A program made the position numbers and the translations under genes. A DNA stretch of 64,000 nucleotides. Source: an uncultured Candidatus Saccharibacteria bacterium. GTDB lineage: Bacteria; Patescibacteriota; Minisyncoccia; Phycocordibacterales; UBA12088. How positions within the stretch are numbered: the first letter of the stretch is position 1; every line of letters starts with the position of its first letter. The notes beneath the pieces were generated by a model. That model had not been told where the DNA came from. It did no database searches and was given only the letters and a program-made list of their open reading frames with translations. The stretch lies in contig CAYPKR010000002.1 in the NCBI GenBank assembly GCA_964411375.1, forward strand, positions 64,894 through 128,893. The letters are read 5' to 3'. Below, one piece after another: positions 16,550 through 60,621 of the stretch.

Positions 16550-17152
16550 TTATTTTGAGAGTGCAAGCGTTGCAGTTGCTGCAGCACTGAGAGATGGCAT
16601 GCTCTGCTTTTTCCAGCATTTTGCGGACGCATTCCAAGGAGTTGTTCCCTGTCGCTCATAGAGATAGCGAGCGTACATGAGGTTTCCTTCAAGTGTGTGA
16701 AGATCAAGTCCAAGCTTTTTTGCCGTAGCACTGTGATAGCTTTCGTTGACCTGCATCACACCGACGTCTGCAGGGACTTGTTCGCCGCGATACACTTTAC
16801 CGTCGAGTGTAGTCTGACGATAATGTGATTCACAAGAAGCGATTAATTTCATGACCGGGATGTCGGCGAAATAGACTTCCACCTTTTCCTCGACCGTATA
16901 TTTATCCGAATTGAGAAAATCACTCATGCTTTCAGTCGGAGTCGACGTTGCCGATCCGTGCGAAAGCGATGAAGCAAACGCGATTGCAATAAGTGCGATA
17001 AGAATAAGCCTTAGTTTATATCCTAAAGGAAGTCGAAGGCGGTATGCCCTCTTCGCCGGCTCACCAAAACAGTGAGGCAACAAAAAATCCCGGGCCGACA
17101 CCCGAGATACGCTAATAAGACTACCAGAGCTCCAAATGCCGTCAATAATCAC
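16550..17152 (-). CDS. lytic transglycosylase-like (SLT/lysozyme-like) secreted protein
   Basis: CESHYRQ...DVGVMQVNE resembles the SLT catalytic-Glu and MQ motifs. An N-terminal hydrophobic signal segment is present. Start uncertain. Confidence 0.5.
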   Translation of the reverse strand: MIIDGIWSSGSLISVSRVSARDFLLPHCFGEPAKRAYRLRLPLGYKLRLILIALIAIAFASSLSHGSATSTPTESMSDFLNSDKYTVEEKVEVYFADIPVMKLIASCESHYRQTTLDGKVYRGEQVPADVGVMQVNESYHSATAKKLGLDLHTLEGNLMYARYLYERQGTTPWNASAKCWKKQSMPSLSAAATATLALSK

Positions 17153-19703: not shown

Positions 19704-20147
19704 TTATTTTGAATCAATAGAAAGCATAAACACTGCAGAGCGATGATCGTGCCACGCTTCGATTGTATGACTGCCGGAAGCTTTGATTGGCGCATTCAGA
19801 GAAATAATTCCCTTAGGAAGATTGAGATGCAGTTCGTCTTGGATCGCTTTCATAATCTGATCTTCCTTGATTGCCTGGAAGAGACTTCCCTTATCATTGG
19901 CTTTAGCGTGAATCCTAACGGTTTTTCCGTTTAAAGCATCGAATAGTTTATGTACCCTGGCATTTTCACCAGCGAGCTTTTCGGCATGCACTTTTTTCTC
20001 TTCCGTAATCGAAGTGATCTTTCCGGTCGTTGCAACTTCGGCCAACCGCTTAGGAAATAAAAAGTGTGCTGCATATCCATCGGATACTTCCTTGATATCC
20101 TGCTTCTTCCCTACCCCGCGGACATCCTGCAGTAATATGACTTTCAT
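19704..20147 (-). CDS. rplI: 50S ribosomal protein L9
   Basis: MKVILLQDVRGVGKKQDIKEVSDGYA consensus. Confidence 0.95.
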   Translation of the reverse strand: MKVILLQDVRGVGKKQDIKEVSDGYAAHFLFPKRLAEVATTGKITSITEEKKVHAEKLAGENARVHKLFDALNGKTVRIHAKANDKGSLFQAIKEDQIMKAIQDELHLNLPKGIISLNAPIKASGSHTIEAWHDHRSAVFMLSIDSK

Positions 20148-31581: not shown

Positions 31582-31617
31582 GGTCACAGTTTTTCACTGC
31601 GTTCAAATCTGTGACCC
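31582..31617. repeat. second GGGTCACAG/CTGTGACCC inverted repeat, overlapping the 3-prime end of tRNA-Glu
   Basis: gggtcacag-N19-ctgtgaccc. The right arm contains tRNA positions 67-72 plus the trailer. Confidence 0.55.
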
Positions 31618-31683
31618 TACCGGGAATCGAACCCGGCTTTAAAGCTTGAGAAGCTTTCGTCCTAACCGATAGACGATAGGGCC
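31612..31683 (-). tRNA. tRNA-Glu (anticodon CUC)
   Basis: The reverse complement folds as a cloverleaf: acceptor GGCCCTA/TAGGGTC with one G-U pair, a D-arm with GG, anticodon stem AAAGC/GCTTT, loop TTCTCAA, and T-arm CCGGG-TTCGATT-CCCGG. 72 nt. CCA is not encoded. Confidence 0.8.
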
Positions 31684-37506: not shown

Positions 37507-37941
37507 CTATATGACCCCAATTTCGCCAAGCTTCTCTGCCATCGAGTCTGCTTGTTTCTCAATCCGCTTTTTGTAATCCTCCCAGTTGTTTGCATCCCAC
37601 ACTTCAACCCGACTTTCGACGCCCGCTAGGACGACTTTGTCGACGAGGGATGCAAACTCCTTGAGGAAATCCGGAATGAGCATTCGACCGACTGAATCGA
37701 TTTCAACTTCAACGGCTCCGGAGAACAGGAACCGGCTGAAGCCTCGAGTATCGGCTTGGCCCATGGGAAGGTTTCTGATTTTATCGGCAACAATTTTCCA
37801 TTCCTTGGTCGAATATACAAAGAGACAAGTGTCGAGTCCGCGAGTGATGACCACACTCCGTCCAAGTTCCTTCCGGAATTTAACCGGAAGCGACAAACGT
37901 TTCTTTGGATCCAAGGTGTGGACGTATTCGCCGATTAGCAT
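37507..37941 (-). CDS. mraZ: division/cell-wall cluster transcriptional regulator MraZ
   Basis: MLIGEYVHTLDPKKRLSLPVKFR, a duplicated MraZ fold. Confidence 0.95.
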   Translation of the reverse strand: MLIGEYVHTLDPKKRLSLPVKFRKELGRSVVITRGLDTCLFVYSTKEWKIVADKIRNLPMGQADTRGFSRFLFSGAVEVEIDSVGRMLIPDFLKEFASLVDKVVLAGVESRVEVWDANNWEDYKKRIEKQADSMAEKLGEIGVI

Positions 37942-38043: not shown

Positions 38044-38072
38044 TTGACGCACGTTGTGGGGCGTGTTATCTT
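38044..38072 (+). promoter_or_regulatory. sigma70-like promoter TTGACG-N17-TATCTT
   Basis: Consensus-like -35 with 17-nt spacing, upstream of an ORF-free structured region that ends in terminators. Confidence 0.35.
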
Positions 38073-38079
38073 CTCTAAG

Positions 38080-38381
38080 TTCTTTTTGCGGAGGGTCGAT
38101 ATGACCTGGCACTAGCTAGGAATCAGAGGATCAACCCAAACCAAGCCTCGAAGGAGGGCTATATATGGTTCTGCTCTGGCGGTAAGTGCGTAGCCGCAGT
38201 AGCGCACAAACAAAATCGCCTGCCCTGCAGGTAAAACACCGCTTTCCAAGAAAGATCCATAATTGCTCGCTGCAATGTCAGTGCGTGCAGGAACGCACAA
38301 ACAGATACACCTGCATCCTCATCGGCAGTAGAAACTTCACCAGGGGGGTCCGTCAGCTAACAGCTGACGGACTTTTAATTT
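38080..38381 (+). ncRNA. candidate ~300-nt structured sRNA (class unassigned)
   Basis: Bounded by the promoter and the 38348-38381 terminator. Two hairpins share identical gtgcg/cgcac stems, each followed by CAAACA. No credible ORF. Confidence 0.3.
38348..38381 (+). terminator. intrinsic terminator
   Basis: gtccgtcagct-aac-agctgacggac-ttttaattt. 11-bp stem. Confidence 0.7.
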
Positions 38382-38569
38382 GAGGTATTTTTGACGAGAT
38401 TTGACAGATTTGGAGATATGATTTATGGTTCAAAACTTGTCTCAAGTGAGTTGAGACACACTGCCGATTTTGGCACGTTGATCTTTCTCTTGCTAAGGAG
38501 ATACGATCAGATGCGCTAGTTCACGCGTTCGCTGTGCATAGGCCTCTTCTCGGATGCACAGCGAAGTTT

Positions 38570-38615
38570 CCCCTGCCAAAGTAGCGATATGCGCTCGGCA
38601 GGGGTTTCTTTTTTA
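38570..38615 (+). terminator. intrinsic terminator, plus-oriented, abutting the lysK stop
   Basis: cccctgcc-N20-ggcagggg-tttcttttttat. Confidence 0.65.
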
Positions 38616-40202
38616 TACAGATACTTCTTTGAGTCTCTCAATTAAAAATTTTCGATCCAGAACTGAAAGAAACCATCCTGCTTTTGGACCCGAATCTTTG
38701 CCGAGAAACGATTGGTAGATTGCGCTAAAAAATTGTTTGGCATCAAGTCCACTTTCCTTTCGAATTTCATGGAGCTCCGTGTGCAAATCTTCACCGATCA
38801 GTGGATCAGTTGCTTCGATATACGCACACACTTTTTGAAGTGCCATTTTTTGTTCTGGAGAAAAATGATTTGTCCCTTCTGGAGCAGAATCTTTTGCGAG
38901 CGTAAATTTGAACTGCTCGTCTGCGTACATATCAAGCCAAAACCTTGCAGTATCTGCACGAAGATCTGCCTCCGCTTTGTCCGAATCGGTGAGTGGACTT
39001 CCTTTTATTCGCTCCACTTCAGCAAGCAGCTCAAGATGTGGCATCTGAATAATAAACGCGACTTCAGAAAAGCGCGGCAAGAATCGTTTTTCTATATTTC
39101 TGCGCTCTTCCAGAAAATGAATGAAAGTAAAGAGCCTGGTATCATCGTCCTCGACTCCATTCCATGTTTTTTCGGCGAGTTTGTCGAAGGTGTCGAAAAG
39201 AACGGGCACGGTGTCTCCAGTCGGACTGAAATTAAACTGCTGCATCGGCTCTTTGCCGATCAAAAACAAGCGGAAGAGGTGCGGCGGCAACAGATCAGCA
39301 ACTTCTCTTGCAGACGCTCCCTTCCCTTTTGAGGAAGACATTTTCTTGCCGTCGATCAAGAAAAATTCGTACGGAATATCGAATGGCGGTTCGATTCCGA
39401 ATACTTCTTTTGCAATATGATTTGCCACGTCCCTCGAGCCGCCCTTGGTGGAATGATCTTTCCCCGCGCCTTCAATGTCGACACCAATCACTTTCCATTT
39501 TGCTGCCCACTCCACTTTCCAAGGAAGCTTTGCATTTCCATCAAACGGAGAAATCGATCCGTTATGTCCGCAGCCTTCTGCCCACTCAACCATTTTTGGT
39601 GGACACACATACGAAACTTTTTCGCCATCGAATCCAGTTACTTTGGTCGTGCCAATTTTGCCGCAGTTTTCACAAATGACTTGCAAAGGATACCAATCGT
39701 CTGCTTTTTTTGATCCCGACACTTCAAGATAAATACGACGAATAGCGTCGGCATTTTCAAGTGCCGCACGAATAGTGTCATTAAATTCTCCTGCTTTGTA
39801 TTTTTCACTAAGGCGATAATAGGTTGGTTTGAATCCTGCGTGTTCAATAACGCCTTCAAATTCTTTGCCATAGTATTCGGCAAAGTTTTTTTCTTTTCCA
39901 TCAGGAGAAGGAATCGTGTACAGCGGTTGTCCCATGTACTGCTTGTATTTTTCTTGATCGAGATACACAGGAAGCCCGTCCATCGGATCCATGTCATTTA
40001 TTTCCCACAAAAATTGATTGTCGATTCCCGCTTCAGCCAAAATTTCGGAAACGGTGCCATGAATCGCTGCGCCGCGCATTGAGCCAATATGGACGCGACC
40101 AGAGGCGGTTTTTTCGTCGCGAATCACGAGCGGCTTGCCGCTTTTGATGCGATCTTGGAGTGCCTTTTCAATATTTTCTTTTACAATATCCGCCCAGAAC
40201 AT
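38613..40202 (-). CDS. lysK: lysyl-tRNA synthetase, class I
   Basis: HIGH-region variant HIGSMRGAAIHG and KMSSSKG (the class I LysRS KMSKS variant). 530 aa from the MFWADIV Met. The 76-codon upstream extension in the ORF track was rejected. Confidence 0.85.
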   Translation of the reverse strand: MFWADIVKENIEKALQDRIKSGKPLVIRDEKTASGRVHIGSMRGAAIHGTVSEILAEAGIDNQFLWEINDMDPMDGLPVYLDQEKYKQYMGQPLYTIPSPDGKEKNFAEYYGKEFEGVIEHAGFKPTYYRLSEKYKAGEFNDTIRAALENADAIRRIYLEVSGSKKADDWYPLQVICENCGKIGTTKVTGFDGEKVSYVCPPKMVEWAEGCGHNGSISPFDGNAKLPWKVEWAAKWKVIGVDIEGAGKDHSTKGGSRDVANHIAKEVFGIEPPFDIPYEFFLIDGKKMSSSKGKGASAREVADLLPPHLFRLFLIGKEPMQQFNFSPTGDTVPVLFDTFDKLAEKTWNGVEDDDTRLFTFIHFLEERRNIEKRFLPRFSEVAFIIQMPHLELLAEVERIKGSPLTDSDKAEADLRADTARFWLDMYADEQFKFTLAKDSAPEGTNHFSPEQKMALQKVCAYIEATDPLIGEDLHTELHEIRKESGLDAKQFFSAIYQSFLGKDSGPKAGWFLSVLDRKFLIERLKEVSV

Positions 40203-40479
40203 AGACGTATCATACGGATAATTGACACCTTGCTCAACATGTGGCAAGGTATCACCCAGACAAGTGGAGTCAGGGAAATGGATTTCTGCGCCGGAGTATC
40301 GGAGTGTGCGCCAGCGATCGTGAACTTTCTTGGACCAAAGGAGTCGTCTGTGATGATACTTCTCACAATTGTCGCCTTTCTGGTCATGATGTTCTGTCGA
40401 CAACCACGCGCCAGAAGGAGGTAGCAGCAAGCGCCGCGAGATTTTGTCTCGCGGCGCTCTTCAATTTCAATATCGAGAT

Positions 40480-48502: not shown

Positions 48503-49054
48503 TTATTCAGCTATTTCTGTTTCTTTTTTCTTCAGAAGCTCTTCAAGATTTTTATTTCCCTGATCAATGAATTTCTGCATTTCCTCCTTACCACGAAACT
48601 TATCATCCTCGCTCATCTCTCCATCTTTCTGTTTTTTCTGAATGTCATTCCATACTTCGTCACGCGCACCGCGGATAGTAATGCGCGCATCTTCAAGTTT
48701 TGCTTTTGCAAGCTTCATAAGTGAAGCTCTGCGCTCACTAGTGAGATCAGGAAACGAGACGCGGACACCTTTGTCATCAACCGATACCGAGACACCAAGA
48801 TTTGCGGCGGTAATCGCTTTTTCAACTTCTTTTATCTGTGACTGATCCCAGGGAGATACGCGGATCGTGCGTGCGTCTTCGATACCGACCGTACCAACCT
48901 GATTTATTGGAAGGCGTGAGCCGTAGGATTCAACTTTAATATTGTCGAGAATTGCGGGGGTTGCGCGACCAGTTCTGATGGAGGCGAATTCCCGCTTCAA
49001 CCATTCTTCAGTTTCCGCGATATTTTTCTTAAGCGATCCAAAATCGTATACCAT
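48503..49054 (-). CDS. frr: ribosome recycling factor
   Basis: IRTGRA..LDNIKVE..VSPWD consensus. Confidence 0.95.
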   Translation of the reverse strand: MVYDFGSLKKNIAETEEWLKREFASIRTGRATPAILDNIKVESYGSRLPINQVGTVGIEDARTIRVSPWDQSQIKEVEKAITAANLGVSVSVDDKGVRVSFPDLTSERRASLMKLAKAKLEDARITIRGARDEVWNDIQKKQKDGEMSEDDKFRGKEEMQKFIDQGNKNLEELLKKKETEIAE

Positions 49055-49090
49055 GTTATCGCTTATAGTAGCGTATAAGTTGTTTTATAC

Positions 49091-49117
49091 AAAAAAACGG
49101 CGCCTGTGAGGGCGCCA
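49091..49117 (-). terminator. intrinsic terminator on the minus strand
   Basis: ggcgcc-tgtgag-ggcgcc hairpin followed on the minus strand by gttttttt. Confidence 0.7.
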
Positions 49118-49645
49118 AATCGAATGGGAGGAAACGCTGCTCAACCACAAAGACGGGCTGATGGTCTTGTAGTCAAGCAATACAAAGGGAGGTAGAGGAA
49201 CGAACTGCTTACGTCACGATTACTCCTACAAATGGAGTTGATCCTGAACCGCTTCCAGGACCTTCGAAAGCGACTATACCCTACGGAAATAATTTGTCAA
49301 AGAAATTAAAAACGCCTCGCCATTCAAATGAATGTCGAGGACGTTGGTGGGAGGGGTTACCGTTGGCAACCACCTTCCTCCCTGATCACCGTTCTTTAAA
49401 ACCGGGCCGGAGGTGGATTCAGCACCTACGGAAATCCGGTGAACTGCAGAGGGCTTGATGCGCCCTCAATCTTGAGCGAAGTGGGGCTTATAGCCCCGAG
49501 CGGCCGTAAGGGTCTATTCGGCGGTACTAATCGGACGTCTCCCTGAGGAACTTCCCCGCTTGGCCGATCATTGGAGCCGCGTCGTGCCGGCATCCAACTG
49601 GCTGATGGAAAATTAACATGATATCAAAAATTTGTCAATAGCACT
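49095..49645 (-). ncRNA. candidate large structured ncRNA (class unassigned; no RNase P or tmRNA hallmark found)
   Basis: About 550 nt of GC-rich sequence with no ORF of 60 aa or more in any of six frames, in a gene-dense AT-richer genome. It ends at a minus-strand intrinsic terminator. Many local helices, e.g. GGGGCUAUAAGCCCC. Confidence 0.35.
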
Positions 49646-49691
49646 CTTTTATTTACATTTGATTGGACAGATGTCCCATATTTGAGTCGGA

Positions 49692-50348
49692 TTACGGGAG
49701 TGCAAGAGCAACATATTCCAAAAGTTGTTTGACCGACGATCCTGGATCACGAATATATCGCTCGGCAAGCAACACGGCTTCGAGTGATTGCTTTTTTGCT
49801 TCGCTACTTCCCTTCCCTTGATGAATAGTGGCCTCCAAACTTGATAGAAACGCGACTGCCTTTGCTTTATCTTTTTCATCCGCGAGTTTCTTACCCATTT
49901 CCAACCGCGCATCAATTTTTGCTGAAAGGAATGAAGAAACGTCAAGGGTTTCTTGACTCTTCATGGTGATCACTTCGACTCGTGAGCGGACGGTCGGGAG
50001 GAATACTTCGGGAGAATACGCGAGAAGGAAAAAATGCACATCTTTCGGCGGTTCTTCAAGAAGTTTGAGAAGTGCGTTTTGAGCTTCTCTTGTTATCGAG
50101 GGGATTCCAAGAATAAAAATTCTTCTCGAACCAAATGGCGCAAGATACGCAAGCTCTTTTATCTCGCGCGCTTCATCAACGCCGAAGGTGTCGAAGATTT
50201 TCTGGTAGTAATCAGGGTGATTTAATCCGATCTCAAGAGTCTCGACTGAAAATGTGGCAACTTCACTCGCCAGAGATTCGATATCACCGACAATTACATA
50301 GGCGTGGTGGAGCGTATTGTTTTCAAATCGGCTTCGGAGGATTTCCAT
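49692..50348 (-). CDS. holB: DNA polymerase III delta-prime-like clamp-loader subunit (AAA+, degenerate P-loop)
   Basis: NALLKLLEEPP..HFFLL and LPTVRSRVEVI (sensor 2/SRC-like) motifs. No intact GxxGxGKT. Confidence 0.6.
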   Translation of the reverse strand: MEILRSRFENNTLHHAYVIVGDIESLASEVATFSVETLEIGLNHPDYYQKIFDTFGVDEAREIKELAYLAPFGSRRIFILGIPSITREAQNALLKLLEEPPKDVHFFLLAYSPEVFLPTVRSRVEVITMKSQETLDVSSFLSAKIDARLEMGKKLADEKDKAKAVAFLSSLEATIHQGKGSSEAKKQSLEAVLLAERYIRDPGSSVKQLLEYVALALP

Positions 50349-50732: not shown

Positions 50733-53513
50733 TTATTTAGCGGGAATAGTTGGCGGAGGTTCAGGCTTACGAAATCGCTCCATAACTTCTGCTTCCACCT
50801 CGGCACGTGGTCGTCCAAAACGTTGATATGATCCTTGGCGGAGCATTTCTACCTGCCCCATATCGGTTGGAGCTGGCGCATTTGTCTGAATATTAAACGG
50901 CGAAGTTGGTTTACCATTTGCAAGAATACGGATGTACGCATTTCGATTGTCGACATTCATAAGATCATGCGCGGTAAATGTCGGTTCAAATTGTTTTTCC
51001 AAAAATGTTGCGTCATCTGGACCGACACGAAAGACTGCCATCGATCCGACGTTGCCGAAGACCGCATTTCGAATATCTTCGTCAATCTGCGCGATGAATT
51101 GGTGCGCGACGGTGAGCCCGAGTTTGTATTTGCGCGCTTCCGAGAGAATAGTCGCGATCGAATCAGTGGTGATATTTTGAAATTCGTCGATATAGAGATA
51201 AAACGGTGGGAGCGTTTGACCGTTTCCAACTGCGTCGACACGAGAAAGTGCTGCCATCAAAATCTTGCCGACCAAAATGAGTCCGATCAAATTGGCGTTG
51301 ATGTCGCCGAGCCTCCCCTTTGAGAGATTCACGAGGAGAATTTTCCGTTCATCCATCACTTCGCGGAAGCGGAACGCAGACTTTTCCTGCGCAATTATTG
51401 GACGCATGTAATCGTTTGCCGTGAATACATCGAATTTGTTGGTGATATACGGCACGATATTTGCGAGTGATGCTTCGCCCTGTGCCTTACTTGCAATTTC
51501 TTGCCAGAATTGATTGATAACTGGATTTTTTGAACGAGAAAGTTTGAGCATTCGAAATCTCGAATCAGCAAGAACACGCGAGACGTCGAGAAGTGTCGCA
51601 CCACTTGCCGGATCTTCAAGAACTAACGTCGTCGCATTTCGGAAATACTGCTCAAACGCAGGTCCCATCGATTCAGGAACCGCGCCATAGAGTTTGCGGA
51701 AAATAGAAAAGAGTTCGTTCACGACAAATGTTTTCTGCTCAGGAAAGCGCTGATCAAACTCGAGCATGTTGAGACCCATGACGCGATCAAGGTATGCGGG
51801 ATCAAAATAGATCACATCTTTATGACGCTCACGAGGCACTGACGCCAAAATATCTTGCACGTCGCTTCCGTGCGGATCGATAAAGCAAACGCCATTCCCC
51901 TCTTTGATATCCTGCACGATCATATTTTTGAGGAGCGTCGTTTTTCCGGTTCCGGTTTGTCCGATTACATACAGATGTCTGAGGCGATCTTCTGCGGTCA
52001 AATACGCTTTAGTATCGACTCCACGGAAGTTATTGGTACCAAGCAGTGTTCCGTCAGTTGCGAGACTCAGCGGTGCTGCAACCGAACCCGATTTTGCTTG
52101 TTTGAATTCTGGTGAGAGAAATGTTTCCTTCGCCGGAAAATGAATGAGCGATGCGATTTCACGGTATGAAAGAACCGATGCTTCGCTCGGTGAAAATTCA
52201 CGAAAGGTAAATTGATTGAGAAGTGTGCGATATGCACCTCCACGCTCCACTCGACTCCATTCGATGTGATTGCTTCCCGTTTCTGCAAATTGACCGAAGC
52301 TTGATTCGATATCGCGAAGCATCTCTTCACTACGCGCTTTTGAATCAGAAGACGCAAGGAGGCGAATATTGGCGAGCGCGAGCGGTGTTTCGATCTTCTT
52401 TTTGATGAGTTCGATCTTTTCGGTATCGATTGTTTTTTCCTTCTTTTCTTCCTCTTCTTTTTTCTTAGAATCCGCACCGAATAGTGAGCCGGCAAATGAA
52501 TGAATCATATCGGTTACGGGAGATTCGACTGCGCGATACGCATCCTTAAATTTCTCCCCTTTTTCCAAATGGCGGATTATTTCTGCGTAGCGCTTCGAGG
52601 TCATGAGATCTAAGGGCTTCAGTACAAATTGGATTGCGGCGCCTTCGTTGTGCTTCTTTATTTTTGAAAATGCAGAAAGAAGGACATTGAGGGGATCGGT
52701 CTCAAAGGTGTCGTACGTTTTGAGCGGCAATACTGGTTGTTCGGCAAGAGACGCGTGTGAGCCGATTGTAATCCCATTTTGGACAAAAATATTGTAATCA
52801 TTTTTTTCTTCGCGAATATGTCCATGCGGAAAGAGAGAGAGCGCCTGCTTTTCAAAAAGTCCGGCACGGCTCTGCGGGACCGAAACATAAAAAATGATCT
52901 CCTGCGTTCCGTCAGCAACAGCGATTTCAATGGTAAAAATTTCTTGCGCATGGTCGTGCTTGCCTGCGCCACCGAGCATTCCGGCATAAAATTGCTCCAT
53001 CGCGCTAATGAGTTCTTTGAAATTCTTTTCCGCACCATCGTCAGACTTGGTCGGAAATGTAATTTCATAGAGTGTCATCCGAAGATCTTCCGCGAGAGGC
53101 GTTTTTTCCGCAAGACCAGGAACCACATTTCCTTCTTTCAGAAATTCTATGAGCAGTCGGTGAAAATCGTCAGTTAAATGGGGATTATTTAAATTTTGAA
53201 CAACCGAGAGCGCATTTTTTACTCCCTTTTCAAACATGATTCCCATGAGCTCGCCCATGAATGCATCATCGCTTTCTGGCGGAAGATCAAGTGTCACCGC
53301 TCGTTGGTCAGCTTCAGTAAATTGATATTCAGGAGTGAGTACAGCGCTTGGAGTGACAGCGTGGTATTCCGAAATAACTTCTTGTGCAGCGGTATTCTCC
53401 GATTCAAAATGATTACTCTCGCCGAGTGCGCGTTCTCGTTCTGCGATTTCTTTTCGCAAATACTGAATTTCCTCCTCCGGTGAGGAAAATTTCGACTGCG
53501 CCTCGTATTCCAT
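50733..53513 (-). CDS. TraG/TraD/VirD4-family (type IV coupling-protein-like) P-loop ATPase with a ~470-aa N-terminal region of unknown function and no TM anchor
   Basis: Walker A GQTGTGKTT. Walker B LYIDEFQN. The C-terminal block KYKLGLTVAHQFIAQIDEDIRNAVFGNVGSMAVFRVGPDDATFLEKQF matches the TraG-D C-terminal domain consensus. Confidence 0.7.
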   Translation of the reverse strand: MEYEAQSKFSSPEEEIQYLRKEIAERERALGESNHFESENTAAQEVISEYHAVTPSAVLTPEYQFTEADQRAVTLDLPPESDDAFMGELMGIMFEKGVKNALSVVQNLNNPHLTDDFHRLLIEFLKEGNVVPGLAEKTPLAEDLRMTLYEITFPTKSDDGAEKNFKELISAMEQFYAGMLGGAGKHDHAQEIFTIEIAVADGTQEIIFYVSVPQSRAGLFEKQALSLFPHGHIREEKNDYNIFVQNGITIGSHASLAEQPVLPLKTYDTFETDPLNVLLSAFSKIKKHNEGAAIQFVLKPLDLMTSKRYAEIIRHLEKGEKFKDAYRAVESPVTDMIHSFAGSLFGADSKKKEEEEKKEKTIDTEKIELIKKKIETPLALANIRLLASSDSKARSEEMLRDIESSFGQFAETGSNHIEWSRVERGGAYRTLLNQFTFREFSPSEASVLSYREIASLIHFPAKETFLSPEFKQAKSGSVAAPLSLATDGTLLGTNNFRGVDTKAYLTAEDRLRHLYVIGQTGTGKTTLLKNMIVQDIKEGNGVCFIDPHGSDVQDILASVPRERHKDVIYFDPAYLDRVMGLNMLEFDQRFPEQKTFVVNELFSIFRKLYGAVPESMGPAFEQYFRNATTLVLEDPASGATLLDVSRVLADSRFRMLKLSRSKNPVINQFWQEIASKAQGEASLANIVPYITNKFDVFTANDYMRPIIAQEKSAFRFREVMDERKILLVNLSKGRLGDINANLIGLILVGKILMAALSRVDAVGNGQTLPPFYLYIDEFQNITTDSIATILSEARKYKLGLTVAHQFIAQIDEDIRNAVFGNVGSMAVFRVGPDDATFLEKQFEPTFTAHDLMNVDNRNAYIRILANGKPTSPFNIQTNAPAPTDMGQVEMLRQGSYQRFGRPRAEVEAEVMERFRKPEPPPTIPAK

Positions 53514-58719: not shown

Positions 58720-60621
58720 ATGCGATTACTGAAAGTCTATCCAATTCAGCGTGGGATTCCGAAGGATGCACTTTCGTATTTCACGGGAGAAAAAATTGAA
58801 GCAGGTGCGGTTATTTCAGTACCACTTCGAAACAAGACAACGGCTGCGGTCGTCACGAGTGTCGAAGAAGTTGCGGAAGCAAAGACAGAAATTCGAAAGT
58901 CAGATTTTACACTTAGAAAAATTGCACCGAAAGCACCGAAGTATCTTCTCTATAGCTCGTACATTCGTGCAATTGTTCGTGCGAGTGAATATTATGCCGC
59001 AACTCCGGGAGCACTTCTTGCACAAACAATTCCACGAACACTTTTTATTGATCCCACAAAGCTCGCAACTCCTAAACCAATTCGCACTACTCCGGGAGTA
59101 CAAGAAACAACCTCAGAAAAATTGGTATTCCAAGGAGACAACATTGAGCGACTTGAGCATCACAAAAATTTGGTACGTGAAGAATTCGCGAGTCGAAAGT
59201 CAGTATTTATTTTGGTTCCGACGATTCAAGACGGCGAGCGACTGTATGCATTTTTATCGCGCGGCATTCCGCAATTTACCTATTTACTCCATTCTGGTCT
59301 TTCGGAACGAGAAGCAAGGACGCGGTGGAACAAAGCGGTGACTGATCCACATCCGATTGTGATAATCGGCACTGGCTCGTTTCTTTCGCTCCCGCGATAT
59401 GACCTCGGCACTATCATTGTCGAGCGAGAAAATAGTTCAGCATATAAATCAATCTATCGCCCGTTTGCCGATATGCGTGTGATTGCAGAGCGACTTGCGG
59501 AAGAAATGCATGTGCGCCTGATTTTCGCTGATTCACCGCTTTCAGTTTCCAGCATGTATCGCGTGGGAGAAAATGATCTCGATCTTCGAAGCGCATCGAG
59601 ATCGAGAAGTATTTCAGTGGCAGATACATTTCTGATCGATATGCGTGAAGAAAAACCAAAGCATAAATCAGAAAAATTTGTCGTACTCGGAAAACAGTTG
59701 TTACAAGAAATGGCAAAATCCCTCGCCGCGCATGAAAATATTTTTCTCTTCACTGCGCGTCGCGGACTCTCTCCCATCACCGTATGCGAAGATTGTGGTA
59801 ATGCCGTTCTCTGCGATATCACCAAAACTCCCGTCATTCTCCATAAAGGTCCGAAAGGAAATGTGTTTGTCTGTCATTCCTGTGGCGCGATGCGTCCTGC
59901 AGATGAGCGGTGTCGCACCTGTGGATCGTGGAAACTTCAAACACTTGGTATCGGTAGTGAGCTTGTTGAAGAAATTGTGCGAGAAATATTTCCAGATGCG
60001 CCGATCTTTGTAATCGACAAAGATAAAACCAAGACACATCGAGAGGCGGTGAAAGTCGCGGAAAAGTTTGCAAACTCGCGTGGAGCAATTCTCCTTGGAA
60101 CCGAAATGGCGCTTTCCTATCTTCCTGAATCAGTTCCAACAATTGGGATTGTATCGATCGATTCCCTGCTCTCGCTTCCCGAGTGGAATGCGTACGAGCG
60201 AGTTTTCGGCATTCTTATACGACTGCGCAGTACCGCTGGAAACAAACTGATCGTACAGTCGAGAAAAACTGAATCAGAAGTTCTCGATCATGCACTGAAA
60301 GGCGCTCTCAATGATTTCTATCGAAGTGAAATTGATATGCGAAAACAATTTGGCTATCCTCCATTTTCAACGTTCATAAAAATTACCGTCTCGGGAAGCG
60401 CAGCCGTTGTCGAAGAAGAAATGAAAGAAATCGAGCGCGTATTTGCGCCATTTGGACTCTCGGGTCGCTCTCACTTAATGCACACCGGAAAAAACATATA
60501 TATGATGCACGCATTTTTGCGAATCGACCGATCCGAATGGCCAAAAAATGATATCGTGGCGCTCTTAAAAACCTTGCCACCAGACATTACCGTTACGGTT
60601 GACCCAGAAAGCATTTTGTAA
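58720..60621 (+). CDS. priA: primosomal protein N-prime (PriA)-like with degenerate Walker A and B
   Basis: N-terminal 3-prime-DNA-binding domain. Cys-rich zinc region CEDCGN..C..CHSCG..CRTCGS and C-terminal domains are present. The positions of GxGKT and DEEH read QGDNIERLE and ERENS. Confidence 0.75.
   Translation: MRLLKVYPIQRGIPKDALSYFTGEKIEAGAVISVPLRNKTTAAVVTSVEEVAEAKTEIRKSDFTLRKIAPKAPKYLLYSSYIRAIVRASEYYAATPGALLAQTIPRTLFIDPTKLATPKPIRTTPGVQETTSEKLVFQGDNIERLEHHKNLVREEFASRKSVFILVPTIQDGERLYAFLSRGIPQFTYLLHSGLSEREARTRWNKAVTDPHPIVIIGTGSFLSLPRYDLGTIIVERENSSAYKSIYRPFADMRVIAERLAEEMHVRLIFADSPLSVSSMYRVGENDLDLRSASRSRSISVADTFLIDMREEKPKHKSEKFVVLGKQLLQEMAKSLAAHENIFLFTARRGLSPITVCEDCGNAVLCDITKTPVILHKGPKGNVFVCHSCGAMRPADERCRTCGSWKLQTLGIGSELVEEIVREIFPDAPIFVIDKDKTKTHREAVKVAEKFANSRGAILLGTEMALSYLPESVPTIGIVSIDSLLSLPEWNAYERVFGILIRLRSTAGNKLIVQSRKTESEVLDHALKGALNDFYRSEIDMRKQFGYPPFSTFIKITVSGSAAVVEEEMKEIERVFAPFGLSGRSHLMHTGKNIYMMHAFLRIDRSEWPKNDIVALLKTLPPDITVTVDPESIL

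Follow-up and report, generated by a model that had tools for sequence, protein, structure and literature searches.

The 637 bases (49055-49691) between a holB-like gene and frr, in the 64-kb stretch of contig CAYPKR010000002.1 analyzed here (the window), hold two tandem minus-strand transcription units, u1 and u2, each with a promoter and an intrinsic terminator. The first of these, u1, is a new structured RNA family with conserved helices and covariation, the power of the comparison being limited by its three sequences. We favor, at a probability of roughly 0.55, the reading that u1 and u2 are two independent noncoding RNA genes acting in trans. A preliminary description of this DNA had proposed a single RNA of about 600 nucleotides (nt); instead, we observe two promoter-to-terminator units, of ~255-295 nt and ~175 nt, of which only u1 has comparative support. 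Both are novel families without an Rfam match, and the kind of object they represent, a bacterial small RNA (sRNA) gene, is ordinary.

Two promoter-to-terminator units in the holB-frr gap

The signals that delimit the two units are as follows.

49610..49638, minus: u1 promoter, TTGACA (49638-49633), 17-nt spacer, TG (49618-49617) and -10 element TAATTT (49615-49610), an extended -10 promoter
49308..49343, minus: u1 intrinsic terminator, CG(U)CCUCG...CGAGGCG stem, inner CAUUC/GAAUG stem and U5, paired in the minimum-free-energy (MFE) fold
49273..49300, minus: u2 promoter, TTGACA, 16-nt spacer and TATAGT, with 11 of 12 consensus matches
49091..49117, minus: u2 intrinsic terminator, GGCGCC hairpin of 7 pairs, then U7

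Transcription is predicted to start near 49603 for u1 and near 49266 for u2, and the u2 unit begins eight bases past the u1 terminator. Across both strands of the 64 kb, the pattern TTGAC[AGT]-N15-19-TAnnnT has 8 matches, two of them in the holB-frr gap and two at 38044-38615. The minus-strand GGCGCC hairpin plus T7 reported earlier, close upstream of frr, is indeed present at 49117-49091. That it ends the whole region is only partly right, since a second minus-strand terminator lies mid-gap (49343-49308) and is followed by a strong promoter (49300-49273). A simple terminator scan missed the u1 terminator owing to its bulge. Neither predicted transcript has an initial AUG, and both units show the generic marks of a stand-alone sRNA gene, namely, its own promoter, its own intrinsic terminator and no coding signal.

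The gap is the longest in the window, although the spacers elsewhere, previously called short, include gaps of 340 to 615 nt (e.g., 38044-38615). Similarly, the GC-rich patch reported for the gap is real for 49345-49606 (59%, in the top 0.2% of 262-nt windows) and for that part solely, the gap overall having 48.8% GC versus 46.0% for the window. The longest open reading frame (ORF) in six frames has 55 amino acids (aa), in line with the earlier statement that none reaches 60 aa; this lack is statistically ordinary, as 30% of gap shuffles likewise have no ORF of at least 60 aa. The characterization of the region as noncoding, structured, minus-strand RNA also stands: there is no coding signal, the folds are steadier than those of shuffles, and the helices of u1 are kept.

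Conserved helices and covariation in u1

Our DNA comparison covered the close-relative loci L026-L031 and left out P0003 and a second P0004 contig. Identities of frr to the window copy and lengths of the holB-frr spacer are listed here.

L026: frr 83% identical, spacer 254 nt
L027: frr 80% identical, spacer 384 nt
L028: frr 78% identical, spacer 592 nt
L029: frr 70% identical, spacer 441 nt
L030: frr 72% identical, spacer 30 nt

Of the six close relatives, L028 and L029 have u1 between holB and frr, and both retain seven helices, the promoter and the terminator. Smith-Waterman z-scores of u1 are 18 against the L029 spacer and 4.1 against that of L028, with 6.1 between L028 and L029. L027, L028, and L029 all preserve the promoter TTGACA with the TGnTAnnTT box, and at the u1-terminator position L028 and L029 carry terminators of differing stem sequence. 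In the window, u1 comprises the following parts.

49345..49603, minus: u1 RNA body, 59% GC, ending ...CCCUCCC-ACCA, with a 5' domain (49603-49498) and then the conserved helices
49483..49497, minus: hairpin D, GGGGC-UAUAA-GCCCC
49449..49467, minus: hairpin C, GAGGGC-GCAUCAA-GCCCUC
49391..49444, minus: composite hairpin, Pout GUUC/GAAC, Pin CCGG/CCGG, loop AUUU/C, 9-bp Hb and 7-nt loop
49349..49382, minus: terminal helix T, GGGAGG, 5-nt bulge, GGUUGCC-AAC-GGUAACC, CCUCCC
49340..49348, minus: 3' tail ACCAACGUC, with ACCA at 49348-49345 and CGUC opening the terminator stem

The RNA measures ~259 nt up to ACCA and ~295 nt to the terminator, and its 5' domain is variable. Fold z-scores are -2.05 for the window copy, -2.9 for L029, and -4.7 for L028. 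Hairpin D has the loop UAUAC and two pairs changed on both sides in L029, and a hairpin occupies the equivalent position in L028; hairpin C is retained in both, with compensatory changes at 2 to 4 positions. The composite hairpin consists in all three copies of a 4-bp Pout, a 4-bp Pin (YCGG/CCGR), an asymmetric AYUU opposite a single C, and the 9-bp Hb, with compensatory changes in Pout, Pin, and Hb. Among 300 kb of related loci, the signature YCGG-AYUU-CC...GG-C-CCGR is confined to the three u1 copies. The linker after the composite hairpin ends in AUCA or ACCA. Helix T has 13 to 15 bp in all copies, on an invariant GGGA/UCCC base, and closes with the loop AAC, CCAUGC, or (in L028) a 62-nt insert. 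It is followed in every copy by the tail A(A)CCAACGUC; the string CCCA(A)CCAACG is identical in the window and L028, has one additional A in L029, and is absent elsewhere in the 300 kb. In a hand-made table, hairpins D and C, the composite hairpin, the linker, helix T, the tail, and the terminator come in equal order and at similar spacing in the three sequences. Both the window u1 and the L028 u1 contain two copies of the heptamer CAGGGAG.

On raw alignments, MAFFT with RNAalifold misaligned the helices and was replaced by re-alignment with a covariance model whose sole sequence was that of the window and whose structure was the hand-drawn u1 helices. This single-sequence model finds L029 with 46.6 bits and an E value of 6e-11. 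In the resulting window-L029 alignment, 96.3% of cells are paired, and changes on both sides preserve 9 of the 41 pairs. When the 3' partners were slid by 1 to 3 columns, 0 to 1 double-change pairs and 30 to 51% pairing remained, and 1 of 500 shuffles reaches 9. A two-sequence model finds L028 at 360-487 (14.8 bits, E value 0.007), aligning D, C, Pout, Pin, and Hb as hand-drawn and skipping the terminal helix with its 62-nt insert. A pseudoknot between the B loop and the D-C linker, with 4 bp in the window and 5 bp in L029, is impossible in L028 and was dropped.

The comparison of homologous regions called for in the preliminary description thus shows that two other genomes preserve the u1 helices, with compensatory changes. 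The picture of a degraded pseudogene without conservation, also raised there, does not match a u1 that is conserved and covarying and shows neither protein-level similarity nor codon periodicity.

The downstream unit, u2

The second RNA is ~175 nt long.

49118..49266, minus: u2 RNA body, with the C/U-rich stretches UUCCUCUACCUCCCUUU (in a predicted 19-nt loop) and GUUUCCUCCC near the 3' end

A long hairpin carries the apical loop CAUCAGCCC, and the MFE fold is multi-branched with a 70-nt one-sided bulge. The fold z-score is -3.3, with 1 of 200 shuffles equally stable. Likeness between u2 and the RNA in the L026 spacer is limited to promoter, terminator, and trailer, the body having a z-score of 1.2.

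We also observe two short strings common to both units. An exact 11-mer, AUUUCCGUAGG (RNA strand), stands in the u1 composite hairpin (49425-49435) and in the u2 promoter spacer (49280-49290), and a 12-mer, CCAUCAGCC(A/C)GU, stands at the u1 5' end (49597-49608) and in the u2 apical loop (49153-49164).

Known RNA families, coding capacity, and mobile elements

At gathering scores, Rfam 15 returns a tRNA-Glu only for the whole window, with no rnpB, ssrA, ffs, or ssrS. At E values up to 10 and with permissive filters, the region 48900-49850 gives no RNase P, tmRNA, signal recognition particle (SRP), 6S, intron, or riboswitch match. No RNase P match was obtained from L026-L029 at E values up to 5, and 15 related loci yielded tRNA and chance-level matches only. 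ARAGORN reports neither a tmRNA nor a tag peptide in the window and L026-L029. The Infernal/Rfam search that the preliminary description had put forward therefore agrees with its failure to recognize RNase P, tmRNA, or SRP RNA by eye. The best sub-threshold match is that of mmgR/suhB (RF00519), an alphaproteobacterial family, to the end of u2 (49084-49149, minus), with 25 bits versus a gathering score of 41 and an E value of 0.009; it is driven by CGUUUCCUCCC (UUUCCUCCC motif) and the u2 terminator. The sole tRNA gene of the window is the tRNA-Glu (anticodon CUC, 31611-31683, minus), whose 3' CCA is not encoded (...GGGUCA-CAG).

Several identities were considered for u1 and rejected. As an RNase P RNA (RF00010/RF00011) it has no model match and no P4 pseudoknot with CR-I (GGAAAGUCC) and CR-V (ACAGAA...GGCUUA), and the sole P4-like string, CGGAYUUCC, which recalls the CR-I complement, sits in a local helix supported by covariation. 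As a tmRNA (RF00023) it falls short because its ACCA helix is a local hairpin instead of an acceptor stem joining the 5' and 3' ends, and because it has no T-loop; as for a tag frame, there is no ORF common to the window and L029 and no codon periodicity. SRP RNA (RF00169/RF01854) gives no cmscan match, the composite hairpin having a 4x1 loop, an apical loop of 7 to 15 nt, and no symmetric AGCA loop. The 6S model (RF00013) likewise gives no cmscan match, u1 being a row of local hairpins whose 3' end lies in hairpin T. We also searched by hand for RNase P P4, CR-II and CR-III, a tmRNA acceptor or T-arm, SRP helix 8, a T-loop, and a K-turn; the resemblances found were partial, misordered, or contrary to the covariation-supported helices. 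With many housekeeping-RNA features missing, u1 is filed under no housekeeping family.

Pfam finds nothing in the longest ORFs of the gap, and a six-frame tblastn of the gap against all related loci finds nothing either. Substitutions between the window and L029 number 62, 54, and 52 by codon position, showing no 3-periodicity. BLAST against phage and plasmid records reveals no similarity, and the gap has no element-like terminal inverted or direct repeats and no second copy in the window.

A second tandem pair at the mraZ locus

A second tandem RNA-like pair lies on the plus strand at 38044-38615, between two minus-strand genes.

37507-37941, minus: mraZ
38613-40430, minus: class I lysyl-tRNA synthetase

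Unit A has the promoter TTGACG-17-TATCTT with an upstream TG, a length of ~265 nt, a fold z-score of -4.3, a helix closing 5' on 3' end, and a 15-bp terminator hairpin at its end. Unit B has the promoter TTGACA-17-TATGGT and ~175 nt that form five hairpins followed by a terminator, with a fold z-score of -5.2. No Rfam family matches either unit. Four related loci (L036-L039) conserve unit B together with its promoter and the loop AGGCYUCUUYUCGG, and unit A is conserved in L038, L039, and L040. The existence of this second promoter/terminator RNA pair supports the sRNA-gene kind for u1 and u2.

A further promoter-like sequence, TTGACG...TAGTCT, occurs on the minus strand at 17087-17145 and is followed within ~10 nt by a 9-bp terminator hairpin and T5; a transcript from this site would be barely more than its hairpin.

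Turnover at the holB-frr junction

Relatives whose frr is 55 to 67% identical to that of the window have just 25 to 50 nt between holB and frr, which marks the gap as a lineage-specific insertion. In a set of 5.8 billion proteins there are seven frr variants of at least 70% identity; frr-anchored scans of genome and metagenome contigs gave relatives of at most 67% identity, all without an insert. In the Kaiserbacteria loci L032-L035, different genes stand upstream of frr. Within the close clade the junction itself is variable: the window has both units, L028 and L029 have only u1, L026 and L027 have unrelated cassettes, and L030 has nothing. In L028 and L029 the u1 homologue ends at its terminator and frr follows directly, without u2. 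The spacers of L026 and L027 hold other RNA-like cassettes with a similar type of promoter and terminator, and the similarity of u1 to the RNA in the L027 spacer is not significant. No further u1 copies were found by an nhmmer profile and motif regular expressions over 300 kb of loci, and motif scans of viral contigs for u1 returned zero or chance matches.

The L027 cassette (L027:2703-2980) aligns locally with window positions 38078-38340, that is, with unit A of the lysK-mraZ locus, at a z-score of 5.9. Two strings recur in both, in matching order: TCGCCTRCCCTGCAGG, 16 nt with one mismatch, and AAACTTCACC. Because of these shared strings, the comparison suggests that RNA cassettes may come and go or move among a small number of intergenic sites.

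Genomic context and the predicted start signal of frr

The genes bordering the gap, and the predicted start signal of frr, are as follows.

48503-49054, minus: frr (Pfam RRF, 6e-54)
49052..49070, minus: frr -10 box, TACTAT/TATAAG, 7 to 10 nt before the ATG (49054-49052), with no Shine-Dalgarno (SD) motif
49692-50348, minus: holB-like DNA polymerase III delta' gene

Past frr lie rseP, proS, and mreB, each on the minus strand. An identical copy of the locus is present in the Logan assembly of run SRR12487045. The nearest public frr proteins come from metagenome-assembled genomes of Patescibacteria (Paceibacterota, Kaiserbacteria-like). Upstream of holB, a gene for a conserved protein of ~926 aa (50733-53513, minus) is present across the clade; its product combines DUF8128 with an ATPase domain of the HerA/TraG type and weakly matches coupling proteins of type IV secretion.

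An SD-like motif precedes only 3 of the 51 likely genes of the window, and in most of the 51 a TAnnnT (-10) box lies 6 to 12 nt before the ATG, as at the starts of the genes at 19704-20147 (minus), 50733-53513 (minus), and 58720-60621 (plus). This layout implies that the mRNAs of the window would be predominantly leaderless. The rarity of SD motifs fits the finding that the anti-SD motif at the 16S 3' end is present in only 48% of Parcubacteria (PMC9297842). At the frr -10 position, ACGnTAGAAT is found in L026, L028, and L029, and the arrangement implies that the frr mRNA is probably leaderless or near-leaderless. With almost no SD sites to bind, u2 is unlikely to serve as a general anti-SD mimic through its C/U-rich loops (UUCCUCUACCUCCCUUU, GUUUCCUCCC).

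Interpretation and alternatives

The reading of u1 and u2 as two independent trans-acting RNA genes starts from their observed anatomy, the noncoding status of the gap, and the u1 covariation; expression, action in trans, 3' trimming, and a target are what we infer from there. Within Patescibacteria, a narrow Kaiserbacteria-like clade would have received both units as insertions between holB and frr. Transcribed from a strong sigma-70 extended -10 promoter and released at its own terminator, u1 would act in trans as a stable structured RNA. Because its helices and junction loops are conserved, and not a long single-stranded seed, a protein-binding or scaffold role appears more likely than simple base pairing through a seed. 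As the tail beside the terminal helix is invariant, the RNA may be recognized by some protein, or by components of translation or RNA processing, any specific partner being far less probable than the overall reading; trimming of the 3' trailer may leave helix-ACCA as the mature end. For its part, u2 would be an orphan sRNA that may base-pair via its large C/U-rich loop or via the apical loop CAUCAGCCC.

Several observations weigh against this reading. No significant homologue of u2 exists among the related loci, and an RNAduplex scan for targets at 51 gene starts did no better than internal coding controls. Three of the six close relatives (L026, L027, and L030) lack u1 at the holB-frr locus, and u1 is thus either not essential there or mobile. 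The model detects L028 weakly, and the u1 family has three members, its covariation consisting of two informative comparisons whose alignments are fitted to the proposed structure.

Among the alternatives, a single structured RNA of ~600 nt spanning the gap, with the internal hairpin and U5 as merely structural features, seems highly improbable. The signals do lie all on one strand in adjacent units, and the simple scan did not call the bulged internal terminator; against this, a promoter with 11 of 12 matches comes immediately after the internal hairpin and U-run, the u1 homologues of L028 and L029 stop at that terminator before an frr without u2, and every relative either lacks the u2 part or has unrelated sequence there. 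The order of promoter, structured RNA, terminator, and gene in these two loci is the classical one of an attenuator, and the repeated CAGGGAG could pair alternatively with CCUCCC, as would befit a cis leader (a riboswitch or protein-binding attenuator) by which u1 controls frr through the terminator. This we consider quite unlikely: a complete u2 unit intervenes in the window, frr has its own conserved -10 box close to an ATG without SD motif, and most relatives express frr without any such leader. With 48 of 51 genes lacking an SD motif, an frr mRNA with a leader of 300 to 450 nt would have no obvious initiation route and would be untranslatable by the apparent route of this genome; no Rfam riboswitch or leader matches. 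To the idea that the units encode small proteins of up to 55 aa we give next to no weight. It can point to the 55-aa ORF (49426-49593, minus), to ORFs of 30 to 31 aa, and to GGGAGG followed by GUG in helix T, but the window and L029 have no conserved ORF in common, codon periodicity and Pfam matches are lacking, the 55-aa ORF is Arg/Pro-rich as GC-rich noncoding sequence predicts, and the transcripts have no initial AUG in a genome that seems to rely on leaderless initiation.

A highly divergent tmRNA, RNase P RNA, SRP RNA, or 6S RNA missed by standard models would suit a size of 255 to 440 nt, a strong promoter, elevated GC, a helix followed by ACCA as in a tRNA or tmRNA acceptor end, and a 64-kb window in which rnpB, ssrA, ffs, and ssrS went undetected. 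It is nevertheless very unlikely for u1, given that none of these families matches the window or three homologous loci even at E values up to 10, that ARAGORN is negative, and that the ACCA helix is a local hairpin in a molecule that is not rod-like and has no T-loop, conserved tag frame, or P4 pseudoknot. Moreover, the gene is missing here in half of the close relatives and in all more distant relatives examined. Finally, the gap might be a nonfunctional insert, left over from a mobile element or from a gene in decay, with promoter- and terminator-like sequences that are fortuitous or vestigial. The variable junction with its differing inserts or none, the orphan status of u2, and the ordinary lack of ORFs speak for this view, which is unlikely though not negligible; the helix-preserving double substitutions in u1 and the conservation of its promoter and terminator across genomes with frr 70 to 78% identical speak against it, as does the absence of phage, plasmid, or protein similarity, terminal repeats, and a second window copy.

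Likeness to known systems

Stand-alone trans-acting sRNAs such as RsaE/RoxS and mmgR (RF00519) resemble u1 and u2 in having their own promoter, an intrinsic terminator, and 175 to 300 nt, while u1 departs from seed-type sRNAs in that its helices are conserved rather than a single-stranded seed. C-rich sRNAs recall u2 by its C/U-rich stretches in predicted loops and the weak mmgR-like match, but their usual anti-SD mode would meet few targets in a host that hardly uses SD sites. With 6S/Ms1-type RNAs, which are poorly conserved in sequence and often missed by Rfam, u1 has in common that it is strongly promoted, stable-looking, a few hundred nt long, and without an obvious seed; it differs in having no central-bubble rod and no pairing of 5' and 3' ends, and in its occurrence in three genomes only. 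Riboswitch or leader attenuators at translation-factor genes show the promoter-RNA-terminator-gene order of L028 and L029, but frr is preceded by a leaderless-type promoter of its own, the window has u2 in between, and u1 matches no known aptamer.

For the end of u1, a formal parallel can be drawn with tRNA and tmRNA 3' ends, in its helix of 13 to 15 bp, invariant ACCA, short trailer, and terminator; the differences are that the helix is a local hairpin and that there is no T-loop, G3-U70, tag frame, or pseudoknots. On a much bolder proposal, which we regard as a long shot, u1 would represent a class of tRNA-acceptor-mimic RNAs, and the holB-frr and lysK-mraZ spacers would serve, in the ultra-small genomes of the candidate phyla radiation (CPR), as sites at which sRNA cassettes can be exchanged. 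Here u1 would be matured like a tRNA 3' end, with trailer and terminator trimmed to CCA, and its helix-ACCA would engage the CCA-adding enzyme, a synthetase, EF-Tu, or the ribosomal peptidyl-transferase center. RRF is itself a tRNA mimic; if the proposal were true, an acceptor mimic would stand beside the RRF gene in a lineage translating leaderless mRNAs.

Significance

To our knowledge, no experimentally described regulatory RNAs are known for Patescibacteria (CPR), and a targeted full-text literature search found no regulatory or covarying noncoding RNA described for this group. With three known u1 members, the practical significance of the family is limited at present. For automated scans, the locus illustrates that a GC-rich, ORF-free gap can contain several small genes, not one large RNA. 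For the Patescibacteria, with their tiny genomes and few regulators, u1 and u2 provide a catalogue entry for metatranscriptomics and co-culture systems, and strongly promoted, terminator-ended RNA genes would then occur at two loci of one 64-kb window, in a genome that seems to be near-fully leaderless.

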